DNA of 64,000 nucleotides from Squalus acanthias (lineage: Eukaryota): contig JASTWF010000070.1 in NCBI GenBank assembly GCA_030390025.1, positions 310,001 to 374,000 of the forward strand, written 5' to 3'. The translations under genes were made by a program, and so were the position numbers. Shown in pieces: positions 677-60,498 of this stretch (positions are counted from its first letter, which is position 1; each line of letters starts with the position of its first letter). The notes under the pieces are model-generated. The model was not told where the DNA came from. It worked only from the letters and a program-made list of their open reading frames with translations, and ran no database searches.

Positions 677-1005
677 GCAGCGAGGATCGAAGCCCCTCGG
701 TTCTTCTCCTCCCTCCCTCCTCGGAAGAAATCGGCTCGGGATCGGCCACTCTGTCCTGCCTGGTCAGTCGCTTTAAGCCGGGCTTGGTGCGGCTCCGCTG
801 GAGCGTGGATGGCCAAGAGACAGACAGCGGAGTGACGACAGGCGCCGTGTCCCCGGACAGCGATGAAACCTACAGCCTGAGCAGTCACCTGAGAGTCCCC
901 GCCGCCGCCTGGAACAAGGGCTCCAGCTATTCCTGCAGCGTCAGCCACGGCTCCCTGAGCTCGCCTCTTCTCAAGACCATCAGCGCCTCCTCGTGTTCTG
1001 ACTGA
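677..1005 (+). CDS. IgL: Ig light chain constant exon, type I/NS5 (sigma-cart), cassette 0; V lies upstream of the window
   Basis: cag acceptor at 674-676. Phase-1 exon SSEDRSPSVLLLPPSSEEIGSGSATLSCLVSRFKPGLVRLRWSVDGQETDSGVTTGAVSPDSDETYSLSSHLRVPAAAWNKGSSYSCSVSHGSLSSPLLKTISASSCSD*. C1-set motifs, C-terminal interchain Cys, close resemblance to shark type I L-chain C; AATAAA at 1315-1320. Confidence 0.93.
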
Positions 1006-5100: not shown

Positions 5101-6024
5101 AGTGGCTGAAACTCTAGGTGTGTTTCTTCGAGAGGAAGCACGATAGATTTTAGCCGGAACATCTTGATAGGCCCTTACCGGGGCAGTTCGGTAGGACTTA
5201 GCTTGATAAGCCCTCGTAGAGGCTCTTGATAGGCAAACCTTTGCAAAATGACCCTTTTTGTTGCAATGACTGAAAAACGCATTGCGAGCAGAGCAGAATT
5301 TCCGAGGGTGGAACTCATCACCACAAAAGAAGCATTTCTTAGATTGCCAAGAGGCTGCCACAGTGGGGTCATCATCCTCTTCATCAGTGAAGTCATCAGA
5401 TTGATCGTCAGGGATAAAGACCTCCCTAATAGAGTTCACCTGTGGCCTCTTAAATTGCCTGACTGTAGTTAAGGCAGTAGACCGAGGTCTGGGCACTGTA
5501 TAAAGGTCTGCATTTCTTTTTGCCAGATCTAGAGAGCAAGCCATGTCATAAGCTCTCTGAAGCTCAAGTGTCTTACTTTCCAGTAGACGCTGGCGTATAA
5601 ATGGGGAGGCAAGCCCGCAGATGAAAGCATCACGGATCATTTCTTCACGGTACAGCTCAGCTGAGGCTGCCCGAAAGTTACAGTCCATACTAAGTCTGCG
5701 AAGCTCTTGGAGGAATTTATCAATGGATTCCTCCGGCCCTTGTTGGGCTGTAGCAAGTAGATGTCTGGCATAGACCTCATTCGGTGTCTTAGTATATAGT
5801 CTCTTAAGCTTCCGAATTGCCTCCTCGTAACTGTCCCATTCCTCCACATACTGAAATACATTCTGGGTGACACAGTTGATGAGTATCCGCAACTTTGAGT
5901 CATCATCAGCCTTACAATATTCCAGAAAATTGTCAAACATGCGATACCAGTGTTTCCACACCTTACCGGCTGCTGGGGTGTTTGGGTCCAAGTCAAGACG
6001 CGATGGTTTAAGGATGTTTTCCAT
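2107..6024 (-). pseudogene. Gag-Pol polyprotein in one frame with two in-frame nonsense codons
   Basis: ORFs 4408-6024, 3385-4404 and 2107-3369 share one frame, broken by TAA (LDA*PLPRIDD) and TGA (PDTLT*AFC). Motifs: Zn knuckles (CFFCG..H..C; CNKKGHFAKVC), protease LIDSGS, RT LPFG/YLDN, RNase H CDAS, integrase HHCC and D,D35E. Confidence 0.92.
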
Positions 6025-6102
6025 GATGGTTGATTCCCTGGATCCTTAGTTCCGAGTTCGTCCAAAAAGTTTGAGTGCGAAGTTTTCCAAAGTTGATTAA
6101 AT

Positions 6103-14657: not shown

Positions 14658-15011
14658 GTGTCCTGGCGGCTCCCGTCCTCAATCAGTCCCCAATATCCGA
14701 TCCTGTCTCCGCGGGTCAAACCGCCCGGTTACAATGTGCGATGCAGAACAGCGCTGTGAGCAGCAAGGACGTGTTCTGGTACCGACAGCGACCCGGGGAA
14801 GCTCCGGTGTGGGTGCTAACTTATGAATCAGATAATGATATATACCGACGCACCGGCTTCACAGACCGCTTTCAACCTTCCAGAGACGCCTCCGGAAACA
14901 GTTACATTCTGACCATCGGAACCCTGGTGCCCGGTGACTCCGCGGTCTATTACTCTTCTGTGTGGGACTCGGTAGTCATCTTAGGACCGGGGACCGTCCT
15001 GAATGTTAAGA
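14658..15011 (+). CDS. IgL: IgL cassette 1 germline-joined VJ exon (type I/NS5); second conserved Cys replaced by Ser
   Basis: GVLAAPVLNQSPISDPVSAGQTARLQCAMQNSAVSSKDVFWYRQRPGEAPVWVLTYESDNDIYRRTGFTDRFQPSRDASGNSYILTIGTLVPGDSAVYYSSVWDSVVILGPGTVLNVK, then gtaagt donor; no RSS between V and J. Confidence 0.92.
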
Positions 15012-18306: not shown

Positions 18307-18635
18307 GCAGCGAGGATCGAAACCCTTCGGTTCTTCTCCTCCCTCCCTCCTCGGAAGAAATCGGTTCGGGCTCGGCCACTCTGTCCTGCCTGGTCAGTCG
18401 CTTCAAGCCGGGCTTGGTGCGGCTCCGCTGGAGCGTGGATGGCCAAGAGACAGACAGCGGGGTGACGACAGGCGCCGTGTCCCCGGACAGCGATCAAACC
18501 TACAGCCTGAGCAGTTACCTGAGAATCCCCGCCACCGCCTGGAACAAGGGCTCCAACTATTCCTGCAGCGTCAACCACGGCTCCCTGAGCTCGCCTCTTC
18601 TCAAGACCATCAGCGCCTCCTCGTGTTCAGACTGA
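18307..18635 (+). CDS. IgL: IgL cassette 1 constant exon
   Basis: 329-nt phase-1 exon SSEDRNPSVLLLPPSSEE...KTISASSCSD*; AATAAA at 18928-18933; spliced product 243 aa. Confidence 0.93.
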
Positions 18636-22729: not shown

Positions 22730-23003
22730 TCTTTCCTGGCTTTCTCTATAGTTTTCCCCGACACGCTCGTCTCCATATTTTAGCTGGAGAAGTCTAGTGG
22801 AACAGCACAAATTACAGACAGCGCCGCTGCTCCAAGCTTGCACCGAGTCACTGATGTGACTTCTGTTGCCGTAGGTCCGTCCGGGTCTATTGTGCCGGGA
22901 ATCGGTGCGTCGCTCTGTAACCCCGTCCGGAAACATCCCAGAAAATAGCATTCCGGTTCGAGGAAACACCACTGACAAAACACAGTAAGGAGACTGTGTC
23001 CTT
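22730..23003 (-). pseudogene. Frameshifted C1 exon relic of the VJ-C1-TM receptor family
   Basis: Across several frameshifts it reads KDTVSLLCFVSGVSSNRNAIFWDVSGR/VTERRTDS/GTIDPDG/TYGNRSHISDSVQAWSSGAVC/CAVPLDFSS*; homologous to 26475-26777 and 42716-43030. Confidence 0.85.
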
Positions 23004-24302
23004 CTACTAAAATTTGAAATTGCAGTACTGGGGTTTTGTTACTTTCTTGCCGACTCCGTACATGTTTGATACAAAGATTAAAGTCCATGAACATAGGAAC
23101 AGGAGGAGGCCATTCAGCCCCTCGAGCCTGTCCCACAACTCAATTAGATCATGGCTGATCTGTATCTTAAATCCAGCGACCCGCCTTGTTTCCGTGACCC
23201 TTAATATCTTTACCCAACAAAAATCCATCAATCTCAGTTTTGAGATTTCAATTGACCCCCAGTCTCAACAGCTTTTTGGGGGAGAGAGTTCCAGATTGGC
23301 ACTACCTTTTGTGTGAAGAAGTGCTTCCTGACATCACCCCTGAACGGCCTGACTCTAATTTAATTAACAAACTGTCCATTCGTTGTAATTATATAGAACC
23401 TGAACACACAAACCCTCCTGCTGCTCATTTTACATGTGCAGAATTCAAAGGGAGCGACCCTTCCCCGCATTCACTCCCATTACAAGGGACTCCGATGGAC
23501 ACAAGTCTTTTTAATTGATTGCTTTTGAATGCAACGGAAAAAATATCAGCTACCTATGTGCAACATACCAAAGGTTCAAACCTCATTATTGTTTGATACA
23601 CCAAATATAATATGGTCAACTTTGCTTCAATCTTTATCAAAGTGAAGGTATTCTATATTAATGCAGTGTTTGACTGCTCAGACACAGTATGTGACACAAC
23701 AAGAATGAGATTGCGAAACATTGAATGCAATCAAGATGTGAATTGCGCCTTATGGTGCAGCGGCGATGAGAGGGGCGCAGAATCCAGGAACCAGGAGGCT
23801 GAGCGTGTAAATAAGAACAGGAGCGCGGCCAAAATCGCACTCAGTGCCCATAAATGATGCTCACCCGGCGGCGAGGTTTGGTTAATAGCACGCTGGAGTA
23901 AAACCTGGGGAAAGAGGTAAGGAAGAACTTGCATTTCTATAGCGCCTTTCACCACCTCAGGACGTCCCAAAGAAAGAAAGATAGAAATTGCTTTTAAGAA
24001 TCTCCTTTCACGACCTCAGGACGTCCCAAAGAGTTCACAGAAAATGAAGTATTTTTGAGCTGTAGTCACTGTTGTAATACAGTGATTACGGCGGCCATTT
24101 TTTGCACAGCAAGCTCCCACAAACAGCAATGTGATAATCATCAGGACATCTCTTTTGTTGATGTTAATTGAGGTATAAATATTGGCCCAGGACACCGGGG
24201 AGAACTACCCCTGCTCTTCTTCCAATAGTGGTCCTGGGATCTTTCACAGCCACCTGAGAGGGCAGATCGGGCCTCGGTTTAATGTTGCATCCGAAAGTCG
24301 GC

Positions 24303-25365: not shown

Positions 25366-28300
25366 GTCAGTCTTATGTGCTTCTACTTCATGGCGGAATT
25401 CAAGCGTATGATCATTGAGCTAATCAGGCTTGTAGAAGAGTGCGCGTTGTATTCTGTAATATTAGTGTCCTGTTGAAGGACTGGATTATCTCAGGCGAAT
25501 GAAATTAGAGCAAATGTCAATATTTTCCATCTATCGGGTGTCCCGTCTGCTCTCTCACGTGGAGGTAAAAGATCCCATGGCCACTATTGGAAGGAGATCA
25601 GGGGAGTTCTGCCCGGTGTCCTGCGGCCAATATTATATCCCTCAATCAACATCACAGATTACCTGGTCATTATCATATTGCTGTTTGTGGGAGCTTGCTG
25701 TGCGCAATTCGGCTGCCGGGTTTCCTGCATTACAACAGTGACTACAGCGCAAAAGGTAATTCATTGGCTGTAAAGATCTTTCTTTCTTTCCTTCTTTCTT
25801 TCTTGCTTTCTTTCTTTCTCTCTTTCATTCTTTCTTTCTTTCATTCTTTCTTCCTTTCATTCTTTCTCCTGTTAGAGGCTTAATTTTAACCCCCATCATT
25901 TGACTCATTTAGATATTAGTATCCATGATCATTAATGATCGGATGGTCCTATTCACAGTTTACTGCTGTACCCGTTTCTTTATAGGAAGCGGTATTTATT
26001 TCTGCCGTGTAACAGACCCTCTTGTGAATATGTTATTCTCTCAGTTATTGCCTCTCAGGAAGTTTTCCGCCAGAATCCGCCGGCTCAGACTGTCTCCGTT
26101 GGAAGTATCTTTAAGGTGGATTGTCACACGGGTTGGTTAGCAGTAAGAAAAGTACACTGGTATAAGCAGCAGCACCGAGAGCATCTACAGCTGGTTTACA
26201 CCGTGAGGAAGCACATGCCGCCTGAAGGAAGATTTTCCGGACAGGTTAACAACGAATCCAGTATTTACTCTCTGATTGTGAAAGATGTCCAGAGGAATGA
26301 TGCGGGGGTGTATTACTGCGCAGCTAAGAAATCTAGCGGAATGCCCTTGATATTCGGAAACGGCTCGAAATTGTTCATTGCAGGTAAGAATTGCGATTGT
26401 TTCACTCATTTTATCATAAATAACGACGAATTTCCGTAGAGTAATAATGATATCTTAACCCCCAAACTCCCCAGGGTCTCCGGAAATCTTTCTCTTAGCC
26501 CCGCCACCGGATGAAATTCCCTCGCTGGAAAGGGTCCCATTGATGTGTTTGGTGAAAAGCCTGTCTCCCGATTCCCTTCCCATTCGCTGGAATGTTTCCG
26601 GACAGGTTACCGAGGAACCGAGCGATTCCGGGACAATAGACCCGGACGGGACCTACACTGTCAGGAGTCACATCAGCGTCTCGGCGGAAACTTGGAGCAG
26701 CGGCGCTGTCTGTACTTGCGCCGTTCCAATCAACTCCACTGGGGATCTGATCAGTGAAAGTGTCTCATCTCAGAGAGGTAACTAGTGGCAGTGACCCTTC
26801 ACTAATATCTTCCGTGCTGATGTAAGAGTTAATTGTTAGCAATATCACTTTATACATTCAAAGTCTCTCCCTTTCTGTGTGTCCATGCAGAATTACCCAA
26901 TCATTTACCTCTCTCGATGTTGCAGTGTTGAGCTTTCTGTCTAGCTCGGCCATACGTCTTTGGTGGGAGAGGATGTCTCGGTCTGAGCTGTCCATGGGTA
27001 GAATTGGAAAATATAATTGCCATTTCCAGTTTATCACTTTCTCTCTCGATGCCTGTATGTAGGTATCTGTATTACACAGTATGTACAGCACAGAGACAGG
27101 CCATTCGGCCCAGCAGGTCCGTGCCGGTGTTTATGCGCCACACGAGTTCCCTCCCATCCCACTTCATTATAAACCCATCAATATCAATCTATTTGTTTCT
27201 CCCTCATCTGTTTATCGAACTTCCCCTTAAATGCATCTATACTATTCGCCTCAACCACTCCCTGTGGGAGCGAGTTCCACATTCTCACCACTCTCTGGGT
27301 AAAGAAGTTTCTCCTGAATTCCCAATTGGCTTTAATAGTGACTATCTTATATTTATGGCGCCTAGTTCTGGTCCCAAGCGCCCCCCTCCCCCGCCACAAG
27401 TGGAAAGATCTTCTCTACGTCGACCCGATCAAAGGTTTTGATAAAGTAGATCGAGAGAGAATGTTTCAACGTGTGGGGAAGAGCATAACTGGAGGCCATC
27501 AATATAAGATAGTCACCAAGAAATTCAATAGGGAATTCAGGAGAAACCTCTTTGCCCAGAGAGTGGTGAGAATGTGGAACTCGCTAACTCAGGGAGTGTT
27601 TGAAGCGAATTGTATAGATGCATTTAAAGGGGGAGGCTGGACAAGCATGTGAGGGAGTAGGGAATAGAGGGATAAGCTGATAGATTTAGATGAGGAAAGA
27701 CGGGAGGAGGCTCCAGTGGAGCATAAACGCCAGCATGGACTGGTTGGGCCCAATGTCCTATCTCTGTGCCATATATCCTATGTAATCCTATGAAAATATT
27801 TTCATAATCTAAAGTCCACTATCAGGTCTCCTCTCAGTCTTCACTTTTGTAGAGAAAAGAGCACCAGCCTGTTCAATCTTTCCTGATATGTATAATGTCT
27901 CAATTCAGGTATCATCCAATAAATCTTTTTGTATCTTCTCCAGTGTCTCTATATAATCTTTATAATATGGAGCCCAGAAATGTTCACAGTATTCCAAGTG
28001 TGATCCAACCAAGGTTCTATAGGAATTGAACATAACTTATCTGCTTTTCAATTATATCCCTCTAGAAATGAACCCCAGTGCTTGGTTTGCTTTTTTATGC
28101 CCTTATTAACCTGCGTCGCTACTTTTAGTGATTTGTGTATCTGCACCTCCAGATCCCGCTGCTCCTCTACTCCATTTAGACACTTATTTTCCAAGGAGTA
28201 TGTGGCCTCCTTATTCTTTTGATCCAAACGGATTCTATCTAACGTTTCATCTAAGAGAGGAGAAAGGTGTCACTTGGGGTACCACAGACTAGAGGAGTTG

Positions 28301-30883
28301 CGGACAAACGCTTAGAATCCGTAATTTGAACTGAAATTGGTGAGCATTTCTAAATGGCTGGGCTAGTTAAGGACAACCAGCAGCGATTTGTGAAAGTGGA
28401 GTCGTGTTTAACAAATTTAATAGAGCTTTTGTAGAATTGACCGATTGGATAGTTAAAGGGATTGCAGTAGATGTAACGTGTATGGATTTCCAGAAGGCGT
28501 TTGATAAGGTGTCGCACAAGCGGGCTGTTGGGAAGCAATTCAGAGGTATGGTGTGAAGGAGATGTGGCAGCCTGGATGGAAAGTTAGATGACAGACAAGA
28601 CATAAGGAGATAGGGTAAATGGGTATTCCTCAGATTGGCGAAGGGTTGGAAGTGCTGCTTTCCAGGGGACCGAGTGGGTTTTGGGATTAGTTTTGGACTG
28701 ATACAGGAATATCGAGGTAGAGCCAGGTAATGGGATTAGTTTTGGATCTATCTGCCAAAAAGCCGGCACAAACATGGAGGGCCTCTAAGTCTCCTTTTGT
28801 GCCCTACCCTTCGATAGGTTCATGATTATATGGTTCTGTCTGTNNNNNNNNNNNNNNNNNNNNNNNNNNNNNNNNNNNNNNNNNNNNNNNNNNNNNNNNN
28901 NNNNNNNNNNNNNNNNNNNNNNNNNNNNNNNNNNNNNNNNNNNNNNNNNNNNNNNNNNNNNNNNNNNNNNNNNNNNNNNNNNNNNNNNNNNNNNNNNNNN
29001 NNNNNNNNNNNNNNNNNNNNNNNNNNNNNNNNNNNNNNNNNNNNNNNNNNNNNNNNNNNNNNNNNNNNNNNNNNNNNNNNNNNNNNNNNNNNNNNNNNNN
29101 NNNNNNNNNNNNNNNNNNNNNNNNNNNNNNNNNNNNNNNNNNNNNNNNNNNNNNNNNNNNNNNNNNNNNNNNNATCTCTCTCTCTATCCATCTCTCCATC
29201 TCTCTATCTCTATATCTGTCTATCTTTCTCTCTATCGATCTATCTCTGTCTATCTATCTATCTGTCTATCTATCTATCTGTCTATCTATCTCTCCATCTC
29301 TCTNNNNNNNNNNNNNNNNNNNNNNNNNNNNNNNNNNNNNNNNNNNNNNNNNNNNNNNNNNNNNNNNNNNNNNNNNNNNNNNNNNNNNNNNNNNNNNNNN
29401 NNNNNNNNNNNNNNNNNNNNNNNNNNNNNNNNNNNNNNNNNNNNNNNNNNNNNNNNNNNNNNNNNNNNNNNNNNNNNNNNNNNNNNNNNNNNNNNNNNNN
29501 NNNNNNNNNNNNNNNNNNNNNNNNNNNNNNNNNNNNNNNNNNNNNNNNNNNNNNNNNNNNNNNNNNNNNNNNNNNNNNNNNNNNNNNNNNNNNNNNNNNN
29601 NAATTATTTTCAGCAACATTTTTAATTTGTTCTCGTGATGTGGGTGACGCTGGTAAGTCTGGCATTGATTGTCCATCCCTAGTGGTTGAGAAGGTGTTGG
29701 TGTGCCTCCTTGAACCTTCTGCGAGAAACAGAAGGCTCGGGTTACGAGTTTTTAAAAAATAAAACGTTTTTTTTTCTTTCTTCAGTGTCCCCGCTACAAA
29801 GCAACTGCAGATTACTGCTTTACGGAACTTCAGCGGCGGCGCTTCTCCTTCTGCTGTTGGTTATTGTCGCTGCGGGAAGGAGCTGCAGGAACCGGTGGTC
29901 AGGTAGCGGTTGCCGGGAGACGCTCCAACTCCGCGGTGCTCCCAATCAATCCATTTATTGTGTCATTGGCTCATTACATGTTAGTGGGTCGGTTCAGTGT
30001 GAAATGTGCGCATTTAGACTTAGATTAAGTTTCTCTTTATATCAGGCAACACGAACAGCGATCAGAAATTGACCGATTCGAGACCACGTGCACAAGACAA
30101 GGAGGTAGATATGAAAAGAATTGTTTTTGCTCAACACATGTCGATACCTTGCACTGATTTTAACCCAATGTTTCAGATTCATAGTTAATGAGTCTATAAA
30201 ACTTTGCATAGTGAGCACTACAGGGTAGCACTGATTTCCTTTTATGTAAAACTGCGAACGTAGATTAAAAAAATATTGATCTGGATATTTTAAATTGCAG
30301 AATGATGATTCACCAGAGTGATACCCGGGGCTAAAAGGGTTAAATTATGAGGACATGTTGCACATACTAGGCTTGTATTCCAACGTGTTTAGAAGATTAA
30401 GGGGTGATTTCATTGTGGTGTTTAAGATGATTAAAGGATTCCATGGGGTAGATAGAGAGAAACAATTTCCTCTGGTGGGGGGAGTCCAGAACAAAGGGGG
30501 CAACACCTTAAAATTAGAGCCAGGCCGTTTAGCGGTGATGTCAGGAAGCACTTCTTCACACAAGGGGTGGTGGAAATCTGCAACCCACTCCCCCAAAAAG
30601 CTGTCGAGGCTGGGGGTCAATTGGAAATTCCAAAACTGAGAGATTTTTGATAGATTCTTATTGGGTAAAGGGATTAAGGGGTAGGCAACCAAGGCGGGTA
30701 GATGGAGTTAAGATACAGATCAGCCATGATCTAATTGAATGGCGGAACAGGCTCGAGGGGCTGGACAGCCTCCTCCTGTCCCTCTGTTCCTATGATGATT
30801 ATGTGGGCCATGATAATGGTTTCTGTTTTCTCTCATAGACTCTTTACGCCCATCTGGCGTTTAATGCGGTTCCGACCCTCTGA
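25323..30883 (+). CDS. Gene B: non-rearranging antigen-receptor-like VJ-C1-TM receptor with tyrosine motif (6 exons, ~301 aa)
   Basis: Exons 25323-25365, 26045-26383, 26475-26777, 29786-29902, 30046-30104 and 30839-30883. All introns are GT-AG with phases 1,1,1,1,0 and the frame is open throughout; AATAAA at 31600-31605. Two N gaps in the C-TM intron could hide exons. Confidence 0.82.
26045..26383 (+). CDS. Gene B pre-joined VJ-type V exon
   Basis: VIASQEVFRQNPPAQTVSVGSIFKVDCHTGWLAVRKVHWYKQQHREHLQLVYTVRKHMPPEGRFSGQVNNESSIYSLIVKDVQRNDAGVYYCAAKKSSGMPLIFGNGSKLFIA, then gtaag; C, WYKQ, DAGVYYC and FGNG motifs. Confidence 0.92.
26475..26777 (+). CDS. Gene B C1-set exon
   Basis: GSPEIFLLAPPPDEIPSLERVPLMCLVKSLSPDSLPIRWNVSGQVTEEPSDSGTIDPDGTYTVRSHISVSAETWSSGAVCTCAVPINSTGDLISESVSSQR; follows a 91-bp intron. 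Confidence 0.9.
29175..29302. repeat. (TCTA/TCTC)n microsatellite between two assembly gaps
   Basis: Simple repeat flanked by N runs 28844-29173 and 29303-29600. Confidence 0.9.
29786..29902 (+). CDS. Gene B connecting peptide/TM exon
   Basis: Strong pyrimidine tract plus cag; VSPLQSNCRLLLYGTSAAALLLLLLVIVAAGRSCRNRWS, then gt donor. Confidence 0.8.
30046..30104 (+). CDS. Gene B cytoplasmic exon 1
   Basis: ttctctttatatcag acceptor; GNTNSDQKLTDSRPRAQDKE; gtaga donor (phase 1 to 0). Confidence 0.65.
30290..30790 (+). mobile_element. CR1 3' fragment in the last intron of gene B
   Basis: RRLRGDFIVVFKMIKG remnant and CR1 3' UTR. Confidence 0.8.
30839..30883 (+). CDS. Gene B terminal exon with ITIM/ITSM-like TLYAHL
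   Basis: tttctctcatag acceptor; phase-0 TLYAHLAFNAVPTL*. Confidence 0.68.
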   Translation, partial: TLYAHLAFNAVPTL

Positions 30884-36019: not shown

Positions 36020-36106
36020 TCATCCGCGACCCGCCTTCTTTTTTGATGACTTTTCCGAGGCAGCAAATTCCAGAGAGGCGTAAAGTATCTGGTCTTGAGG
36101 GCCGCC
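36020..36106 (-). CDS. Gene D terminal exon with canonical ITIM ILYASL
   Basis: ttttcctgtctcag acceptor; GGPQDQILYASLEFAASEKSSKKKAGRG*. Confidence 0.7.
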   Translation of the reverse strand, partial: GGPQDQILYASLEFAASEKSSKKKAGRG

Positions 36107-38653
36107 CTGAGACAGGAAAATATATTAAACATTGACATTTCAAGATATTTAAAGGCAGGTCAAACAATCCCGTCCTGCAGTCGCGTTTCATGGAATCATA
36201 GAACGATGCAGCACAGAAGCAGGCCATTCGGTCCATCGTGCCTGTGCTGGCTCTTTGAAAGATCATAAGAACATAAGAACATAAGAATTAGGAGCAGGAG
36301 CAGGCCATTCGTCCCCTCGAGCCTGCTCCGCCATTCAATAAGATCATGGCTGATCATCGACCTCAACTCCTCTTTCCAACCCGATCTCCATATCCCTTGA
36401 TTCCCCTAGAGTCCAAAAATCTATCTATCTCAGTCTTGAATATACTCAAAGACTAAGCATCGACAACCCTCTTGGGCAGAGAATTCCAAAGTTTCACAAC
36501 CCTCTGAGTGAAGAAATTCCTCCTAATCTTCGTCTTAAATGGCCTACCCCTTATCCTGAGACTATGCCCCCTAGTTCTGGACATGCCAGCCAGGGAAAAC
36601 AACCTCTCAGCATTTACCCTCTCAATCAATCCACTTCAGAATTTTGTATGTTTCAATGAGATCACCTCTCATTCTTCTAAACTCCAGAGAGTATAGGCCC
36701 AATCTACACAATCGCTCATCATAAGACAGCCCTCTCATCCCAGGAATCAATCTAGTGAATCTTTTTTGCAACGCCTCCAAGGCAAGTACATCCTTCCTTA
36801 GATAAGGAGACCAAAACGGTGCACAGTATTCCAGGTGTGGTCTCACCAAGGCACTGTACAATTCCAGCAAGACTTCCTTACTCAATCGCTCTCTCTCACA
36901 CACACACACACACACACGCACACACACACTATCAATCACACCCAGACATAATCACACGCACTCACACACTCAATGACGCACACATAATCAATCATACCCA
37001 GATATAATCACACACACACAGACACTTAATCACTCACAGACACACTCAATCAATCATAACCAGACATAATCACATGCACTCACACACTCAATGACACACA
37101 CACAATCAATCATACCCAGACAGAATCACACGCCATCACACGTCCTAAAAGAAAGAAAGACTTGCATTTCCACAGCATCTTTCATGACCTCAGCACGCTC
37201 CAAACGCTTTACAGGCAATGACATACTTTTGAATTGTAGTTTCTGTTGTAATGTTGGAAACGTGGCAGCGAATCTGCGCACAGCAAGCTCCCAGAAAGAG
37301 CAATGAGATAATGTCCAGATAAACTGTTTTTTTAATAATGTTGGTTGAGGGATAAATATTGGCCCAGGACACCAGGGAGAACTCTCCTATGCTCTTCTTC
37401 GAGATAGTGGCGTGAGTCCTTTTACGTCCACCTGAGAGGGCAGAATGGGGCTCAATTTAATATCTCATCTCAAAGACGGCACCTGCGACGGTGCAGCACT
37501 CCCTTAGTACTGCCCCTCCGACAGTGCAGCACTCCCTCAGTACTGCCCCACCGACAGTGCAGCACTCCCTCATTACTGCCCCTCTGACGTTGCAGTGCTC
37601 CCTCAGTATACCCCTCCGACAGTACGGCGCTTCCTCAGTACTGCACTGGGAGCGTCAGCCTAGATTTTTGTGCGCAAGTCTCTGGAGTGAGACTTGAACC
37701 CATGACCTTCTGACGCAGAGGCGAGAGTGCTACCCACTAAGCCACGGCTGATAATCAGACGCACTTACACACTCACTAAATCTCATACATACACACACAC
37801 ACTCACTCTCTGAGACACTCACTCACAGACACAAACACACTCACACACACCCACACACACTCTCACACGCACAAACACACTAACACAATCACACACATTC
37901 CAATACGCACACACACTTACACTCACNNNNNNNNNNNNNNNNNNNNNNNNNNNNNNNNNNNNNNNNNNNNNNNNNNNNNNNNNNNNNNNNNNNNNNNNNN
38001 NNNNNNNNNNNNNNNNNNNNNNNNNNNNNNNNNNNNNNNNNNNNNNNNNNNNNNNNNNNNNNNNNNNNNNNNNNNNNNNNNNNNNNNNNNNNNNNNNNNN
38101 NNNNNNNNNNNNNNNNNNNNNNNNNNNNNNNNNNNNNNNNNNNAAAATTATTCTATCTTTGACGACTTATCATAGAAACATATTTTGACTTATCTGTGAA
38201 ACTATTCTGGGTGTCGTCTTATTTCTGAATCTTCATAATAATAACGTTGCTAATATATAAAAAAACAGCATCTCCGCCTGATGGGAGGAGGCGGAGGATT
38301 GTGGGGGGAGCGGACATGGCCTCAATGTAGATATAAAAGAATAGAAAATAGCAAAAAGCTGGAAATCTGAAATAGAACCTGAAACTGCTGGAAATCCGCA
38401 GTAAAGTCTGTTGAAGGCATTCTACCCGGAACATTAACCTGTTCTTTCTATTATCAGATGGGAAGAGGGCTGCGGGATATGTTCTGTTTCTAGTTGGAGC
38501 AACGAGTGGGATTCGCTGCAAATTAAAATGATCTGGACTATGACCTGCTCAATGCCAACCGTGTGAAATATCCCGCATGCAGCGCATTGCACCCATCCCA
38601 GAAATCATCAAGTTCCTGTATATTATTGCAACAGGTTCAATGAACTTACTTAC

Positions 38654-38703
38654 ATGTATTGCACCCTGATGTGTCCGCTTCGCCTCCATTTGACGGTTGT
38701 CAC
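38654..38703 (-). CDS. Gene D cytoplasmic exon 2 (predicted)
   Basis: acacag acceptor; GDNRQMEAKRTHQGAIH; gtaagt donor; phase 1-0. Confidence 0.55.
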
Positions 38704-38779
38704 CTGTGTATCAACAGTTAAGAATATGAATTTAAATATTATCAATTCTGGCTAATCTATATTTAATTATAGATGCAGC

Positions 38780-39140
38780 ATGCGCCAGTGGTCCCCTAAT
38801 ACGCCAATGGTCCAGCAATATGCCAATGGTACCGCAATATGACAATGGTCCAGCAATACGCCAACGGCACCCCAAAATGCCAATGGTACCCCAATATACC
38901 AATGGTCCACCCATATGCCAATGGTCCACCAATACGACAATGGTCCAGCATAACGACAATGGTACGCCAATATGCCAATGGTCCACCATATGCCAATGGT
39001 CCACCAATACGTTAATGGTACCCCAAAATGCCGATGATCACACAATAAGCCAATGGTCCACCAATTTCAATGGTACCCCAATAGGTCAATGATCCCCCAT
39101 TATGCCAATTATCCGCCACTACGCTAATGGTATCCCAATA
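38780..39140. repeat. Minisatellite of ~18-20-bp units (CCAATGGT(C/A)C..CAATA(T/C)G) in a gene D intron
   Basis: About 18 degenerate tandem units; they produce the repetitive ORFs at 38732-39092. Confidence 0.85.
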
Positions 39141-39361
39141 CAACAATGGATGGACATGAATGATCCACCCCCGGTGTCTGGCGTCTATTGTCCATCTGAT
39201 ACATATTTGTTAACATTAATAACCAATAATTTGCCTTTCTGTAGATCTGGCAGACAGGGGAATGATGGCAGGACATTTTGATGGCGGGAAATGCACTTAT
39301 TGATCTTTGAAATATCCCACAATTGATGTTCTCACTCCACCAACATTTCAATCCAGCTCAC

Positions 39362-39400
39362 CTGAGTGTTGTTCATTTCTTCCGGCTCTTATCGTTCTCT
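39362..39400 (-). CDS. Gene D cytoplasmic exon 1 (predicted)
   Basis: tttcacag acceptor; ERTIRAGRNEQHS; gtgagc donor; phase 1-1. Confidence 0.5.
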
Positions 39401-39760
39401 CTGTGAAACTAAAACTATATGCAAACAAAAATGTTAAACAAACATTACTTCTTGTAAATCCTTGGTCACATGCCATAAATATCGAGAACAGAATTGCGGA
39501 ATGGACTTTGATTCAATCTTAAAAGAACGTGGAAAATGTTTAAATTGGAGTCGGGGTTAACTGGTTTTGACACAGTGTTAAATACAGTGAGACTGTTACT
39601 GATGAACTTTGTAAATGGTTCAGTTACTCACCTTTCATTGTGGGGTCCCTTGACTCGTTCTTCTGAAACAATTAACTGTAATAAGTATTTAACGCTTCGA
39701 GAAGGGAGTCACATTAAACAAACTTTTATTCAAATATTCCTGATAAACATAAATTCACAC

Positions 39761-39862
39761 CTGATCTGCCGCTTTTATGATTCCAAATGGAAATGAGGAT
39801 CAATACCAGAACCAGACTCACCGAGACAGTTATGGCAAAGGGAAGGGTTAGAATGCACCACC
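39761..39862 (-). CDS. Gene D TM exon
   Basis: tttctctctgtag acceptor; GWCILTLPFAITVSVSLVLVLILISIWNHKSGRS; gt donor. Confidence 0.8.
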
Positions 39863-40134
39863 CTACAGAGAGAAACACTTAGAAAATGCATCTGGGTCAA
39901 ATCATTACTTTCTGGGATTCTCTTATGAGAAACTTGATCCAGTTACAGTGTAGGAGCATCAAACCCGGGGTGTGAAAGGACAAATCAGCCAATGCGACGC
40001 ATATTGGACAAGTGAAAGCTCATATTGGAATACATTGCACTAGTTTGGTGGTTGAGACAAATTGACAGACGGCACTCTTAGTTATGCCCCATAATTTTAA
40101 TAATACACAATGAAAACATACTATTTGAAAACTG

Positions 40135-40840
40135 AAACATAGAATGATTACAGATCAGAAGGAGGCCATTCAACCGATCGCGGCTGTGCCGGCTCGTTGG
40201 TGGAGCTACCCAATTAGACCCACCCCCCTTCTCTTTCCCCATAGCCCTGTTAATGTTATCCCTTCAAGTATTTATCCAGTTCTCTTCTGAAAGTTATTAT
40301 TGAATCTGCTTCCACCGCCCTTTCAGGCAGCGCATTCCAGATCACAACAACTCGCTGCGTAAAAAAATGTTTCCTCATCTCCCCTCTGATTCTTTTGCCA
40401 ATCACCTTAAATCTGTGTCCTCTGGCTACCGACCCTTCTGCCACTGGAAACAGTTTCTCCTTATTTATTCTATCACCACCCTTCATGATTCATGATTGAA
40501 CACCTCTATTAAATCTCCTCTTAATCTTCTCTGCTCTAAGGAATTCAATCCCAGCTTCTCCAGTCTCTCCACATAACTGAAGTCCCTCAACCCTGGTACC
40601 ATTCTGGTAAATCTCCTCTGCATCCCTCTCCAAGGCCTTGACATCCTTCCTAAATTGTGGTGCCCAGAACTGGACACAATACTCCAGCTGTGGCCCAACC
40701 ATTGCTTTATAAAGATTTAGCATAACTTCCTTGCTTCTGTACTCTATTCCTCTATTAATAAAGCCAAAGAGTCCATATGTTTTTTTAACAATCTTCCCGA
40801 CTTGTCCTGCCACCTTCAAAGATTTGTGCACATACACCCC
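40135..40840 (-). mobile_element. CR1 LINE 3' fragment
   Basis: LEYCVQFWAP, QRRFTRMVPG and FFTQRVVVIWNALP remnants. Confidence 0.85.
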
Positions 40841-41089
40841 CATGTTTTATGAGTGATAAACTGGAACAATTACCCAATTTCAGTGAAGCTTCATAACCCG
40901 ATTAAATGAAAATCTATTTCACGGGGAAAGTGGGGATTGATAAGGGGGGTTCGGGTCTTTATACAGGAAACGAGAAAATAAACGGCTGGAAATGAGCGAG
41001 CGTCTGATCCCAGCAGACGCGTTCAGCCAACTATTTCACCGCATCTCTTGACTAGTTTCAGGTCAGAAAGCGCGTTCACTCCAATCCAT

Positions 41090-41740
41090 TCCATCGCCCG
41101 TCTCTGCCCTTGCCTCAGCTCATCCGCTGCTGAAACCCTCATCCATGCCTTTGTTACCTCTAGACTTGACTATTCCAACGCACTCCTGGCTGACCTCCCA
41201 CATTCCACCCTACGTAAACTTGAGGTCATCCAAAACTCGGCTGCCCCCGTGTCCCAACTTGCGCCGAGTCCCGTTAACCCATCACCCCCTGTGCTCGCTG
41301 ACCTACATTGGCTCCCGGTTAAGTAGCACTTGGATTTCAAAATTCTAATCGTTGTTTTCAAATCCCTCCATGGCCTCGCCCCTTACTATCTCTGTAATCT
41401 CCTCCAGCCCCTACAGCCCCCTGAGATATCTGCGCTCCTCTAATTCTGTCCTCCTGAGCATTCCTGATTATAATCGCTCCACCATTGGTGACCGTGCCTT
41501 CTGTTGCCAATGCCCTAAGCTTTGGAAATCGCTCCCTAAATCTCTGTACCTCTCTTTCCTCCTTTAAGACGCTACTTAAAACCTCCCTCTTTGACCAAGC
41601 TTTTGGTCACCTGGCCTAATTTATCCTTATGTGGATCAGTGTCAAATGTGTAGTCTTAAAATACTCCTGAGCAGCTCCTTGGGACGTTATACTACGTTAA
41701 AGGCGCTATATAAATACAAGTTGCTGTTGTTGTTGTTGAT
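41090..41740 (+). mobile_element. L2 LINE 3' fragment
   Basis: AETLIHAFVTSRLDYSNALL...LHWLPV remnant; (TGT)n tail. Confidence 0.85.
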
Positions 41741-42047
41741 GCGCTGCCTGAAAGGGCGGTGGAAGCTGATTCACTAATAACTTTTAAAAGGGAACCGGAT
41801 AAATACTTGAAGGCGAGAATCTTGCAAGGGCTGTGGGGAAAGATCAGGGGAGAGTGGGATTATTTGGATAGATCTTTCAAAGAGCCGACACAGGTACGAT
41901 GGGCCGAATGGCCTCCTTCTGTGCTGTATCATTCTGTGATTCTAAGATGACACGCAGAAATCTAAAGTCAGCCAAGAGTGGAGAAAGTATTTACCGGGGC
42001 AACACATGGCATGACTACACATATGCCACCGTGTTGCCACATTACTG

Positions 42048-42510
42048 GGGCAACACGGTGGCATAGTGGTTAGCACTGGTGCCTCACAGCGCCAGAGACC
42101 CGGGTTCGAATCTGACCTCGGGTGACTGTCTGTGTGGAGTTTGCACATTCTCCCCGTGTCTGCGTGGGTTTCCTCCGGGTTCTCCGGTTTCCTCCCACAG
42201 TCCAAAAATGTGTGGGTTAGGTTGATTTGGCTATGATAAATTGACCCTTAGTGTTAGGGGGGATTAAATATGTGGGGTTATGGGGATAGGATGGGATATG
42301 TTAGGGGGAATTAAATACGTGGGGTTACGGGGGTAGGGTGGGATATGTGTACTGTGGGGATTAAAGCAGGGACAGGGTACTGGATTTGGATGATCAGCCA
42401 TGATCGTATTGAATGGCGGAGCAGGCTCGACGGGCCGAATGGCCTACTCCTGCTCCTAGATTCTATGTCTATGTTTCTATGTTTCTATGTTTCTATGTTT
42501 CTATGTTTCT
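42048..42510 (+). mobile_element. HE1-type V-SINE with CR1-derived tail
   Basis: tRNA A/B boxes (TGGCATAGTGG; GGTTCGAATC), V-domain TGTGTGGAGTTTGCACATTCTCCCCGTGTCTGCGTGGGTTTCCTCCGGG, (TTTCTATG)n tail. Confidence 0.88.
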
Positions 42511-42715
42511 AAGACCTGGGACGGAGGGTAACCGTAGCTTATTTCAATGTATTTTTTAACAGACTGATCGCACTATTTTTCCTGATATATAGATATTCAT
42601 GCTCATCCCGTGGTGTTGCTTTATTTACAGACGCGAGGCGCTTAGGAGCGAGTGAACTACTCCAACTGACGCTGAAGCTGAAAACTAACCTTCGCTAAAC
42701 AGATCACCGACTCAC

Positions 42716-43030
42716 CTGCCACTGTTTTGGGGCGCGACACGCTCTTGACCCAAGATTTGTCCTTGGAACCCAGCTCAACAATACAGGTGCAGACCCCGCC
42801 GCTTCTCCAGGCTTCCCTCGGGACCATCACATGGCTTCTGATGCTGTAGGTCCCGTCCGGGTCCAGTGTACCGGAATCGCTCCGTCCCTCGGTCAACTGT
42901 CCGGTAACGTTCCAGTAAATAGCAATCTGGTTCGAGGAGACGCCAGTGACCAAACACACCAAGGGGACGGTGTCCCTTAAATGCGGCTCCCCCGGCGGAG
43001 CAAACACCAGCACAGCCGGTGTGGAACTGT
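42716..43030 (-). CDS. Gene D C1-set exon
   Basis: DSSTPAVLVFAPPGEPHLRDTVPLVCLVTGVSSNQIAIYWNVTGQLTEGRSDSGTLDPDGTYSIRSHVMVPREAWRSGGVCTCIVELGSKDKSWVKSVSRPKTVA; follows a 90-bp intron; gtgagt donor. Confidence 0.9.
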
Positions 43031-43120
43031 CTGGACAGGGATTGGGACAAAGTTAACTCTTACTTTACACCGAATGATATTGCTGTGCATGATCTGAATT
43101 CAATTTGGTTTCGCTCTTAC

Positions 43121-43452
43121 CTCCAACCAGCAGTGTGGATCCATTCCGGAGCGGTGCATTGCCATCCCTGTCAGCACAGTAATAGGAGCCGGTGTCAGTA
43201 ACCTGCACATTGCGGATTTCCAGGATCAGTATTTTTTCGGTGTGTCCTCTTTTAGAAGTAAACTTGCAATCGGTCCGATTACAGGATGGGATATCGATTA
43301 GTCTCGGGGTTCACCCACACACTGCTTGTACCAGTAATAGCTATTCACAAATTCCACTTCATAATTCTGGTGACATTCCAATTCAACCGACTGGCCGACT
43401 CCGGCTGTAACTGTGAAGGGGCTCCGAGACAGAAAGGGCTGGGACTCTGCAA
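43121..43452 (-). pseudogene. Gene D pre-joined V exon with a 1-nt frameshift
   Basis: VAESQPFLSRSPFTVTAGVGQSVELECHQNYEVEFVNSYYWYKQCVGE[fs near 43305-43312]PRLIDIPSCNRTDCKFTSKRGHTEKILILEIRNVQVTDTGSYYCADRDGNAPLRNGSTLLVG; 332 nt, one short of a multiple of 3. Confidence 0.85.
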
Positions 43453-44080
43453 CTAGAGGGATTATTGTTACATTAGAACTGATTATTGAGCGATAGAAAG
43501 AAGCCGCGTTGAAACACCTCGCCTGTAATTTAAGAACAGCATAATTATTGCCTTTAGTTATTGCTTGTTATATCCATTCTCTAGTTTGCCTTTACTTCGC
43601 CTTATCGGAGGACCAGAAAGTAAGCCAACATTATCAACAACAACTTTCTTTGATACAGCGCCTTTAACGTAATTAAACGACCCAAGGCGCTTTACAGAAA
43701 TTTGACTCCGAACCACAAACTGAGATGTTTGGACAGGTGACCAAAAGCTTGGTCAAAGAGGTAGGTTTTAAGGAGCGTCTTAAAGGAGGAGAGAGAGGTG
43801 GAGAGGTTTAGGGAGGGAATTCCAGAGCTTAGGGATCAGGCAGCTGAAGGCACGGCCCGCCAATGCTGGAGCGATTAAAATCGGGGTTGTTCAAGTGTCC
43901 AGAATTGGAGGTGCGCAGAGATCTCGGAGAGCAGCAGGGCTGGAGGAGGTTACAGAGATAGGTAATCGGCGAAAATAGCAGCCCAAAAGCTGTTAGCTGG
44001 GCCACATTTTCAACTTAGTAAACAGAGTCTATTGTTTCTGGCTGATTCCATTTAGGAGCTCGCAACCGTGTCTCACTCAC

Positions 44081-44135
44081 CGTAAGGCCAGAACACGTGA
44101 ACAATGAGGATCAGGGAAAAAGCTTCCTTTAACAT
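44081..44135 (-). CDS. Gene D leader exon
   Basis: MLKEAFSLILIVHVFWPY, then G and gtgagt donor. Confidence 0.8.
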
Positions 44136-48047: not shown

Positions 48048-48250
48048 GCTCGGGGAGGCCCGCGTGACCAGACTCGACACATCGACGGATTTTGCTGCAT
48101 TGAAAATGTCATCAAAAAAGAAGGCGGGAAAGAGACGCGAACTCGAATGGGATACATGAGATTTACGAAAGAATCCACAGCAGGCGGAAACAGTAATTTA
48201 ACTTGCAATGTAAACTCCCAGAGACTCTCAACAAACACCTAAGCTATCTC
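48048..48250 (+). pseudogene. Inverted decayed copy of the gene D terminal (ITIM) exon and 3' UTR
   Basis: GGPRDQTRH/STDFAALKMSSKKKAG versus GGPQDQILYASLEFAASEKSSKKKAG; clear nucleotide homology (GTCATCAAAAAAGAAGGCGGG) to the reverse complement of 35900-36130. Confidence 0.75.
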
Positions 48251-56770: not shown

Positions 56771-57124
56771 GTGTCCTGGCGGTTCCCGTCGTCAATCAGT
56801 CCCCAATATCCGATCCTGTCTCCGCGTGTCAGACCGCCCGGTTACAGTGTGCGACGCAGAACTGGGTAGTGAGCAGCAACAGCGTGTGGTGGTACCGACA
56901 GCGACCCGGGGAAGCTCCGGTGTGGGTGATATATCACAAGCATGATGGCACCATCAAACGAGGCACCGGCTTCACAGACCGTTTTCAACCTTCCAGAGAC
57001 GCCTCCGGTAACAGTTACATTCTGACCATCGGAACCCTGGTGCCCGGTGACTCCGCCGTCTATTACTGTGCTGTCTGGGACACGGGATACTTCTTCGGAC
57101 CGGGGACCGCCCTGAGTATAAAGA
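56771..57124 (+). CDS. IgL: IgL cassette 2 germline-joined VJ exon (type I/NS5), intact
   Basis: GVLAVPVVNQSPISDPVSACQTARLQCATQNWVVSSNSVWWYRQRPGEAPVWVIYHKHDGTIKRGTGFTDRFQPSRDASGNSYILTIGTLVPGDSAVYYCAVWDTGYFFGPGTALSIK, then gtaagt donor. Confidence 0.94.
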
Positions 57125-60169: not shown

Positions 60170-60498
60170 GCAGCGAGGATCAAAGCCCCTCGGTTCTTCT
60201 CCTCCCTCCCTCCTCGGAAGAAATCGGCTCGGGATCGGCCACTCTGTCCTGCCTGGTGAGTCGCTTTAAGCCGGGTTTGGTGCAGCTCCGCTGGAGCGTG
60301 GATGGCCAAGAGACAGACAGCGGGGTGACGACAGGCGCCGTGTCCCCGGACAGCGATCAAACCTACAGCCTGAGCAGTTACCTGAGAGTCCCCGCCGCCG
60401 CCTGGAACAAGGGCTCCAGCTATTCCTGCAGCGTCAGCCACGGCTCCCTGAGCTCGCCTCTTCTCAAGACCATCAGCGCCTCCTCGTGTTCCGACTGA
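60170..60498 (+). CDS. IgL: IgL cassette 2 constant exon
   Basis: 329-nt exon SSEDQSPSVLLLPPSSEE...KTISASSCSD*; AATAAA at 60806-60811. Confidence 0.93.

Follow-up and report, generated by a model that had tools for sequence, protein, structure and literature searches.

The 64,000-nucleotide stretch of Squalus acanthias DNA analysed here (the window) contains a receptor gene with an ITIM, termed gene D, that falls one base short of an open coding sequence. This raises the question of whether the gene has truly been lost or the base has been dropped by the assembly, and of which receptor family it belongs to. An earlier note on this DNA proposed a pseudogene, a null allele or an assembly indel. 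We found this to be the right set of options, with the first two favoured: a real, young pseudogene or null allele is the reading to which we give a probability of about 0.62.

Exon structure of gene D and its one-base lesion

Gene D was resolved into eight exons on the minus strand, with seven introns that are all GT-AG. Its features are as follows (positions in the window).

44081..44135, minus strand: exon 1, leader, 55 nt, ATG at 44135, phase-1 donor GTGAGT
43121..43446, minus strand: exon 2, single-exon V(J) domain, 326 nt (327 in intact copies)
43309..43310, minus strand: lesion, one G absent, GAA^CCCC against GAAGCCCC in paralogues
43298..43300, minus strand: premature TAA, codon 68, 722 nt upstream of the last exon junction
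42716..43030, minus strand: exon 3, C1-set domain, 315 nt, open (Pfam C1-set E 4e-11)
39761..39862, minus strand: exon 4, stalk Cys and uncharged transmembrane (TM) helix, 102 nt, phase 1-1, donor GTGTGA
39632..39662, minus strand: exon 5, tail exon c1, 31 nt, phase 1 to 2
39362..39408, minus strand: exon 6, tail exon c2, 47 nt, phase 2 to 1, acceptor TTTTAG
38654..38703, minus strand: exon 7, tail exon c3, 50 nt, phase 1 to 0
36020..36106, minus strand: exon 8, ILYASL (ITIM consensus) and stop; xxYASL in elasmobranch relatives

The leader matches those of horn shark and sevengill models, and the V exon carries the B- and F-strand cysteines, an additional C'-loop Cys pair and the J-like segment LRNGSTL; with the V of gene D's twin copy as query, the Pfam V-set was matched at E 2e-12. 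V and J are held in one exon, and the best RSS-like match in this exon and the next intron has three to four mismatches. The second domain was recognized by Pfam as C1-set only, with exactly one C1 present. The TM helix has a hydropathy of 2.66, and the donor of its exon, shared with two close copies, is a slightly weaker site than the GTGAGA of 19 of the 23 copies having a TM exon. ILYASL satisfies the consensus (I/V/L/S)xYxx(L/V). The C1, TM and ILYASL exons are open, in agreement with the earlier note, as are the splice sites it listed. Its joining of the ILYASL exon to the TM exon holds only by way of three tail exons that it did not name: spliced directly, the two would be out of frame, with a phase-1 end on the TM exon and a phase-0 start on the ILYASL exon, and c1, c2 and c3 are therefore needed. 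The c1 peptide is identical in horn shark models; for c2 a nearer CACAG acceptor was rejected because a stop results.

The claim of a single base missing from FR2 of V is borne out by the length of the exon. The string GAACCCCGAGA has a single occurrence, at 43312 of the minus strand, and an exact 24-mer spanning the lesion site has one match genome-wide. At this site GAAGCCCC is present in 21 of the 23 sister copies and GAAGCAC in the other two, such that the base lost is a lone G, with the AA and CCCC runs both at full length. An indel in a short homopolymer, as had been suggested, is thus not what happened here, and slippage was rejected as the mechanism. When an N is inserted between 43310 and 43309 the frame is open through the V, C1, TM and tail exons; as it stands, the message is a predicted substrate for nonsense-mediated decay. 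No second inactivating change was found in gene D, so that, unlike in most of its broken sisters, the deletion stands alone.

The LRNGSTL segment and the extra Cys of WYKQC had been read as further degeneration. Both are present, but as family traits and not as signs of decay. The F of FGxG is found in none of the 24 local copies, the open ones reading LRNG in five cases and LGNG in seven; the full FGxG was never seen among 19 elasmobranch relatives, and a turtle relative reads FGNG. The extra Cys codon (CGT>TGT) recurs at a CpG: four of the 24 copies, including an open one, have it, and three further copies have CAT (His), the alternative CpG product. Over 5485 columns gene D has seven private exonic substitutions, some shared by conversion. 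Somatic hypermutation was rejected for the three private changes in V, as the density of private changes is not raised.

Sister copies and the origin of the missing base

At least 24 copies of the gene D family were found in the assembly, 12 of them open, 10 broken and two without tail exons; those in gene D's own cluster are 92-100% identical. As about half of the sister copies are broken too, a single-base lesion is ordinary in this family, and the frameshift by itself is a minor matter, being either an assembly slip or one broken copy among ten. In seven of the ten broken copies the lesion is a substitution (nonsense, splice site or start codon), which argues for real loss, since one-base indel noise does not make such lesions. 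Furthermore, gene D falls within a clade of four copies (support 93/96, the bootstrap of 93 lying under our starred mark), none of which is full-length. Its twin, inverted and 98.5% identical, carries a leader donor changed from GT to TT and a TGG>TGA change in the TM exon, whilst one of the other two members has a different -1 and the other is without exons c1-c3. The chance of four non-full-length copies in four, given 12 in 24, is 0.047, and that for the other three alone is 0.093.

Alignment of the window with the twin over 62.4 kb gave 948 substitutions and 48 one-base indels, the latter split 22:26. Private substitutions number 3.6 per kb in the window and 6.4 in the twin, so there is no excess in the window. 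The earlier description of a 'very recent' pseudogene can be kept only as a loss that postdates the separation from the twin, with 1.5% divergence over 62 kb. Among 11 open copies pN/pS was 1.55 in V and 1.51 in C1, from pairs that are not independent; purifying constraint among the young copies is not evident from these values.

The main alternative is that gene D is intact, and that the G is missing because a consensus error from long reads escaped polishing among the near-identical copies of the cluster, in which case the gene would encode a 337-residue inhibitory receptor. We regard this as possible, although the less probable account. The assembly demonstrably carries stretches with one-base indel errors: one near-identical copy pair shows 33 one-base indels in 11.9 kb against 34 substitutions, and a second pair 15 in 3.5 kb against six. 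Among polarised events, a noisy stretch has 17 indels (nine deletions, eight insertions) per nine substitutions. Some such errors in the cluster's assembly are at lone bases, which make up about 5 of 17 polarised one-base indels. That gene D has no second lesion speaks for an error as well, as do two further private one-base deletions within 2.4 kb, both in short runs; the three private deletions, at 40960, 43309 and 44163, all fall within 3.2 kb, a mild local excess. The noisy stretches, however, are dense, with insertions and deletions in balance and near one event per 200 bases, and noise of this density is absent from the window. Its polarisable isolated one-base events amount to four deletions and no insertions per 107 substitutions, near the ratio in the twin (two events per 117 substitutions). 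Against an error also stand the substitution lesions in seven of the 24 copies, by which real loss is common, and the fact that the three closest relatives are all broken or tail-less.

Contigs of public runs also bear on this alternative. In four public DNA runs, no Logan contig crossing the site has the deletion; all carry the extra base (one contig each in runs X3 and X4, three in X6, and loose ends in X1 and X3), which favours an error. The same four runs are without the window's private substitutions, TA at 43199-43200 and C at 43170, and as such may not hold the gene D copy. In runs X1 and X4 a contig identical to the window from 43395 to 43310 stops at the lesion site, which could be a fork or a merge. 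On this evidence, we find a recently dead duplicate more likely than an assembly slip. For counts of immune genes in this assembly, the patches of one-base indel error nevertheless call for caution.

It is very improbable that the deletion is real and yet harmless through skipping of the V exon, giving a functional ligand-blind C1-TM-ITIM chain that could pair with the product of the neighbouring gene C. With phase 1 common to the leader, V, C1 and TM exons, joining the leader to C1 keeps the frame as far as ILYASL; C1, TM and tail are still open, and exon skipping accounts for TM-less isoforms in horn shark models of the family. Such phase symmetry, however, is general in Ig-superfamily exons, a V-less isoform was absent among the elasmobranch models examined, and the leader-donor and TM-stop lesions of the twin would also kill a V-less isoform. 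Cryptic splice sites inside V comprise one in-frame AG (43247, without a pyrimidine tract) and one weak donor (43314).

A likely partner chain and a proposed history

Gene C adjoins gene D tail to tail, and a stalk Cys is present in both.

26045..26383, plus strand: gene C, V(J) exon with canonical FGNGSK, open
26475..26777, plus strand: gene C, C1 exon, open
29786..29902, plus strand: gene C, likely stalk-Cys and transmembrane exon, bounds set by eye

Gene C is likely the partner chain of gene D. A modelled pair of D-type and C-type ray ectodomains scored 0.64, against 0.14 for the best of three controls, with the runs agreeing in at least 77% of contacts and a partner pLDDT of at least 80. 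Among microbial pairs, 51 of 78 solved and 2 of 108 mismatched ones attained the mark applied to such scores, and among eukaryote pairs 39 of 65 solved and 2 of 126 mismatched ones. That the modelled ray pair passes may reflect likeness to solved Fab/TCR-like complexes.

Low-depth pieces from putative RNA runs give a weak hint that the family is expressed, with no bearing on gene D itself: on a sister copy, one piece spans V with the frame intact (run X18), two lie on C1, and one in run X20 lies on the ITIM exon, where 87 letters upstream of the acceptor are unplaced. No splice joint was listed in these runs for the sister copy, where repeats swamped the tables.

We infer that a cassette of gene D, gene C and germline-joined light-chain genes was multiplied by segmental duplication, and that redundant copies would then lose function singly, by birth and death. 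In gene D the single-base deletion would be the first hit; its message would stop at codon 68 and then be degraded. The intact copies are predicted to act as receptors at the cell surface, paired with the gene C chain by contacts between the V domains, between the C1 domains and between the stalk cysteines. ITIMs recruit SHP-type phosphatases, and upon ligand binding the single ITIM would be expected to do so. A larger picture, doubtful for now, is of a KIR-like, haplotype-variable cluster in sharks, in which about 24 D and C cassettes specify two-chain, TCR-shaped, germline-fixed inhibitory receptors, co-amplified with germline-joined light-chain genes, their ligand loops under diversifying selection and null alleles segregating in populations, gene D being one such null. 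The family is of more consequence than the frameshift: an inhibitory family of 24 copies that apparently evolves fast and lies next to germline-joined light chains would be a candidate for a natural-killer-type receptor system of sharks.

Comparison with known receptor systems

Elasmobranch models in RefSeq with the automatic names 'immunoglobulin kappa light chain-like' or 'uncharacterized' were found to belong to the gene D family. These models, among them those of Heterodontus francisci and Heptranchias perlo, are 71-77% identical to gene D in V; they share its exon chain, including the three tail exons, the C'-loop Cys pair, the stalk Cys and xxYASL and, unlike gene D, are open. In many galeomorph sharks a P stands two places before the Tyr (PTYASL, PLYASL), outside the strict ITIM consensus. 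Relatives were also found in chimaera, sturgeons, lungfish, caecilian, turtle and lizard; a word-index profile search returned elasmobranchs only, whilst a full HMM scan found the bony vertebrates too. The clade joining gene D with bony-vertebrate genes has a support of 94/91 and is unstarred. Sequence and fold searches of the PDB returned generic antibody chains only, the predicted fold being light-chain-like at 19-26% identity in a modest model (pLDDT 58.7). We found no published description of this shark cluster in the literature searched, although supplements and subscription papers may hold one.

Among shark genes, UrIg and UrIg2 are non-rearranging, a single VJ exon preceding the C1 domains (three in the secreted UrIg, nine or more in UrIg2), and are often mis-annotated as light chains, according to the available part of the source (PMC12227049). 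That part mentions an ITIM for neither (PMC12227049), whereas in gene D a single C1 goes with a long ITIM tail; an assignment to either was rejected on its one C1 exon against three or more. The family lies beside germline-joined light-chain genes. Gene D is not an Ig light chain or TCR chain, which have a rearranging or germline-joined V-J with FGxG and no ITIM tail: it has a TM helix and ITIM tail, and in the tree it separates from the light chains. The NITR family of teleosts and the SIRP family of vertebrates are clustered V(J)-type ITIM receptors with birth-and-death evolution and frequent pseudogenes, and gene D resembles them in being clustered, V(J)-type and ITIM-tailed, with many broken copies. 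The second domain of NITR is I-type and SIRP has a V plus two C1; gene D was set apart from the former by its C1-set domain and from the latter by its one C1.

The closest likeness is to PRARP, in which V and J share one exon without recombination signals, the layout outside birds is V-C1-TM, a cytoplasmic ITIM or ITSM and a canonical FGxG J-like segment are present, and a gene pair encodes a disulfide-linked dimer. Gene D likewise has a non-rearranging single-exon V(J), C1, TM and a cytoplasmic tyrosine motif, forms with gene C a related pair in which both genes encode a stalk cysteine, and has relatives over a taxonomic range resembling that of PRARP. It differs in a J-like segment without the F and often without the first G, in a family of at least 24 copies interleaved with light-chain clusters, and, in this copy, in the frameshift. 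Because of the J-like segment we file it as PRARP-like and not as a member: the family is a PRARP-like, non-rearranging V-C1-TM-ITIM receptor, likely inhibitory. PRARP is named as a VJ gene (PMC10751288, PMC11599192), and non-rearranging VJ-C1 genes are presented as the sought relics of the gene that the RAG transposon inserted into (PMC12227049, PMC10751288). This particular copy, with its introns kept, an inactivating lesion and intact paralogues (12 of 24), has the features of a duplicated (unprocessed) pseudogene or null allele.

Exon structure and lesion of gene D

Gene D, a V-C1-transmembrane (TM) receptor gene with the ITIM motif ILYASL, comprises eight exons with GT-AG introns throughout:

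44135-44081, minus strand, leader exon
43446-43121, minus strand, V exon
43030-42716, minus strand, C1 exon
39862-39761, minus strand, TM exon
39662-39632, minus strand, first tail exon (31 nt)
39408-39362, minus strand, second tail exon (47 nt)
38703-38654, minus strand, third tail exon (50 nt)
36106-36020, minus strand, last exon with ILYASL

The earlier note had placed the bounds and the lesion correctly and had left out the three tail exons, which are required to link the phase-1 end of the TM exon with a last exon starting in phase 0; horn shark (Heterodontus francisci) RefSeq models also carry their three peptides. An N stretch (37927-38143) falls within the last intron, where full exon models of open paralogues need no extra exon.

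In the assembled sequence, translation leaves its frame beyond codon 65 and meets a TAA (43300-43298) at codon 68, 722 nt ahead of the last exon junction. In an alignment of 24 copies the site reads GAACCCC in the window vs GAAGCCCC in 21 of the 23 others and GAAGCAC in two, bearing out the proposed missing base. Only one G, outside any run, is absent, which speaks against the suggested short-homopolymer indel, and a genome-wide match found the lesion form only once. Two features previously listed beside the lesion are not decay. The degenerate J (LRNGSTL) was rejected as such because F is present in 0 of 24 copies, the open ones reading LRNG (five of 12) or LGNG (seven), and the 19 relatives from sharks and rays likewise lack a full FGxG. 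The extra Cys (WYKQC) arises from CGT>TGT, present in four of 24 copies, one of them open; three others carry CGT>CAT at this codon, as is typical of a CpG site.

Broken copies and the case for and against a real deletion

A genome search with V and C1 returned 24 full-length matches (92-100 % identity), 21 of them on the window's own contig (C3553, where the window spans 310001-374000), a lower bound with 40 of 53 candidates scored. Under full exon models 12 copies were open, ten broken and two without tail exons; seven of the ten broken copies carry substitution lesions.

Copies of gene D that are broken or lack tail exons (kb positions on C3553; C185 and C3349 are other contigs)
Window: broken; -1 in V
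574 kb (twin): broken; leader donor GT>TT, TGG>TGA in TM
403 kb: broken; -1, different from the window's
518 kb: broken; nonsense
1040 kb: broken; nonsense, C1 donor lost
C185 and C3349: broken; start codon lost and -1
234 kb and 11 kb: broken; -1 and acceptor lost
1200 kb: broken; -1 in J
462 kb: tail exons deleted
869 kb: tail exons not found within the 15 kb examined

A tree of 23 copies (C3349 omitted, its TM being off contig) grouped the window copy with those at 574, 403 and 462 kb (support 93/96), none of the four being full length (P 0.047; 0.093 for the other three alone). Loss of the three tail exons at 462 kb (L034:1977-6288) shifts the last exon to another frame, possibly yielding an ITIM-less variant. 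Three open copies, L044 (contig C24), L045 (148 kb) and L051 (1316 kb), have altered signalling, two reading PLYASL and one lacking the tyrosine and the B-strand Cys; galeomorph sharks, too, usually have P at -2 of the motif, where rays and the sevengill shark carry I/V. Pairwise counts among 11 open copies (the 292 kb copy, near-identical to that at 635 kb, was dropped) gave pN/pS of 1.55 in V, 1.51 in C1 and 1.06 in TM plus tail; variation sits in the BC, DE and FG loops, and these counts are suggestive only.

The entire window is matched by an inverted twin, about 98.5 % identical (C3553:553-617 kb; 553400-616900), which may be a paralogue or the other haplotype; either way, both gene D copies are broken, by different lesions. 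Window and twin differ by 948 substitutions and 48 one-base indels (22 vs 26). Transitions made up 435 of the 948, and 148 of 332 between other copy pairs; a share under half is low for vertebrate nuclear DNA. Polarised with other copies, the window had four deletions and no insertions per 107 substitutions and the twin two per 117, in a subset only, most events being crowded or without outgroup and left unpolarised. The indel balance and the few polarised window deletions were counted for a real lesion.

Counted toward assembly error were three private one-base deletions within 3.2 kb of gene D and the noisy patches of this assembly. Near-identical pairs elsewhere differ in one case by 33 one-base indels vs 34 substitutions (11.9 kb) and in another by 15 vs 6 (3.5 kb); all polarisable indels are clustered on one side, some 5 of 17 of them affecting lone bases. 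Such patches, confined to one copy (L070/L071 vs L068/L069, L067 vs L063, L056 vs L054) and lying at contig ends and in one interior stretch, are local consensus errors, which will fake frameshifts in this assembly. Every public Logan contig (four runs) across the site had the extra base; as none carried the window copy's private substitutions, these cannot decide the matter (best word share of public runs, 0.48). On balance we judge it about two-in-three likely that the lesion is real. Gene D is a real-looking but unproven one-base knockout, ordinary birth-and-death in a family with half its copies broken.

The cluster around gene D

The surrounding cluster is a more interesting object than the frameshift. 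Gene C, a plus-strand V(J)-C1 gene with canonical FGNG and open V and C1, lies tail to tail with gene D about 16 kb away, an arrangement also found in several other cassettes. Modelled for one ray, D- and C-type ectodomains scored 0.64 vs 0.14 for the best control, with V-V, C1-C1 and stalk contacts, contact agreement of at least 77 % and partner pLDDT of at least 80; among microbial pairs, 51 of 78 solved vs 2 of 108 mismatched ones attained the pairing mark (eukaryotes, 39 of 65 vs 2 of 126). The pass may simply reflect how closely the two chains resemble Fab and TCR structures already solved. Exons of germline-joined light-chain genes flank the D/C pair:

14666-15007, plus strand, V-J exon
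56785-57120, plus strand, V-J exon
679-1002, plus strand, C exon
18309-18632, plus strand, C exon
60172-60495, plus strand, C exon

These genes are probably lambda, since PMC12227049 gives shark lambda chains as wholly germline-joined and notes a cluster in the MHC paralogue on chromosome 9. In the V at 14.7 kb the second Cys is gone (YYSS); near 56771 the twin is 4 bases shorter. An orphan, decayed last exon of the gene D family (48050-48135, plus strand), its tyrosine motif gone, sits about 4 kb upstream of the gene D start; a decayed D-type C1 remnant (22814-23005, minus strand), head to head with gene C, recurs in many cassettes; and an LTR-retroelement-like gag-pol region (2110-6045, minus strand) is broken up by in-frame stops. 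No published account of a shark D/C cluster was found in the literature searched, which covered few subscription papers.

The intact receptor and known systems

Pfam assigns V-set and C1-set domains to the gene D family, which has an uncharged TM and a single ITIM-consensus motif. Its 55 close shark and ray relatives, auto-named light chains or uncharacterised, share a stalk Cys and, in the C' loop, an additional pair of cysteines that hardly varies. A full HMM scan added relatives in elephant shark, sturgeons, paddlefish, lungfish, caecilian, turtle and lizard, all sharing the layout and most ending in xxYxxL. In the tree these relatives join the D family (support 94/91) and stand away from light chains and gene C types. 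Two horn shark models (P0002, P0003) skip the TM exon in frame, possibly representing secreted isoforms.

UrIg, UrIg2, NITR, SIRP and light chain were each rejected as identities for gene D on domain count and type. Its layout agrees with that reportedly described for PRARP by Fu et al. in 2019; it differs in having no canonical J segment. PRARP is named in passages of PMC10751288 and PMC11599192. Because of the missing J segment we call gene D, from its sequence layout, only PRARP-like.
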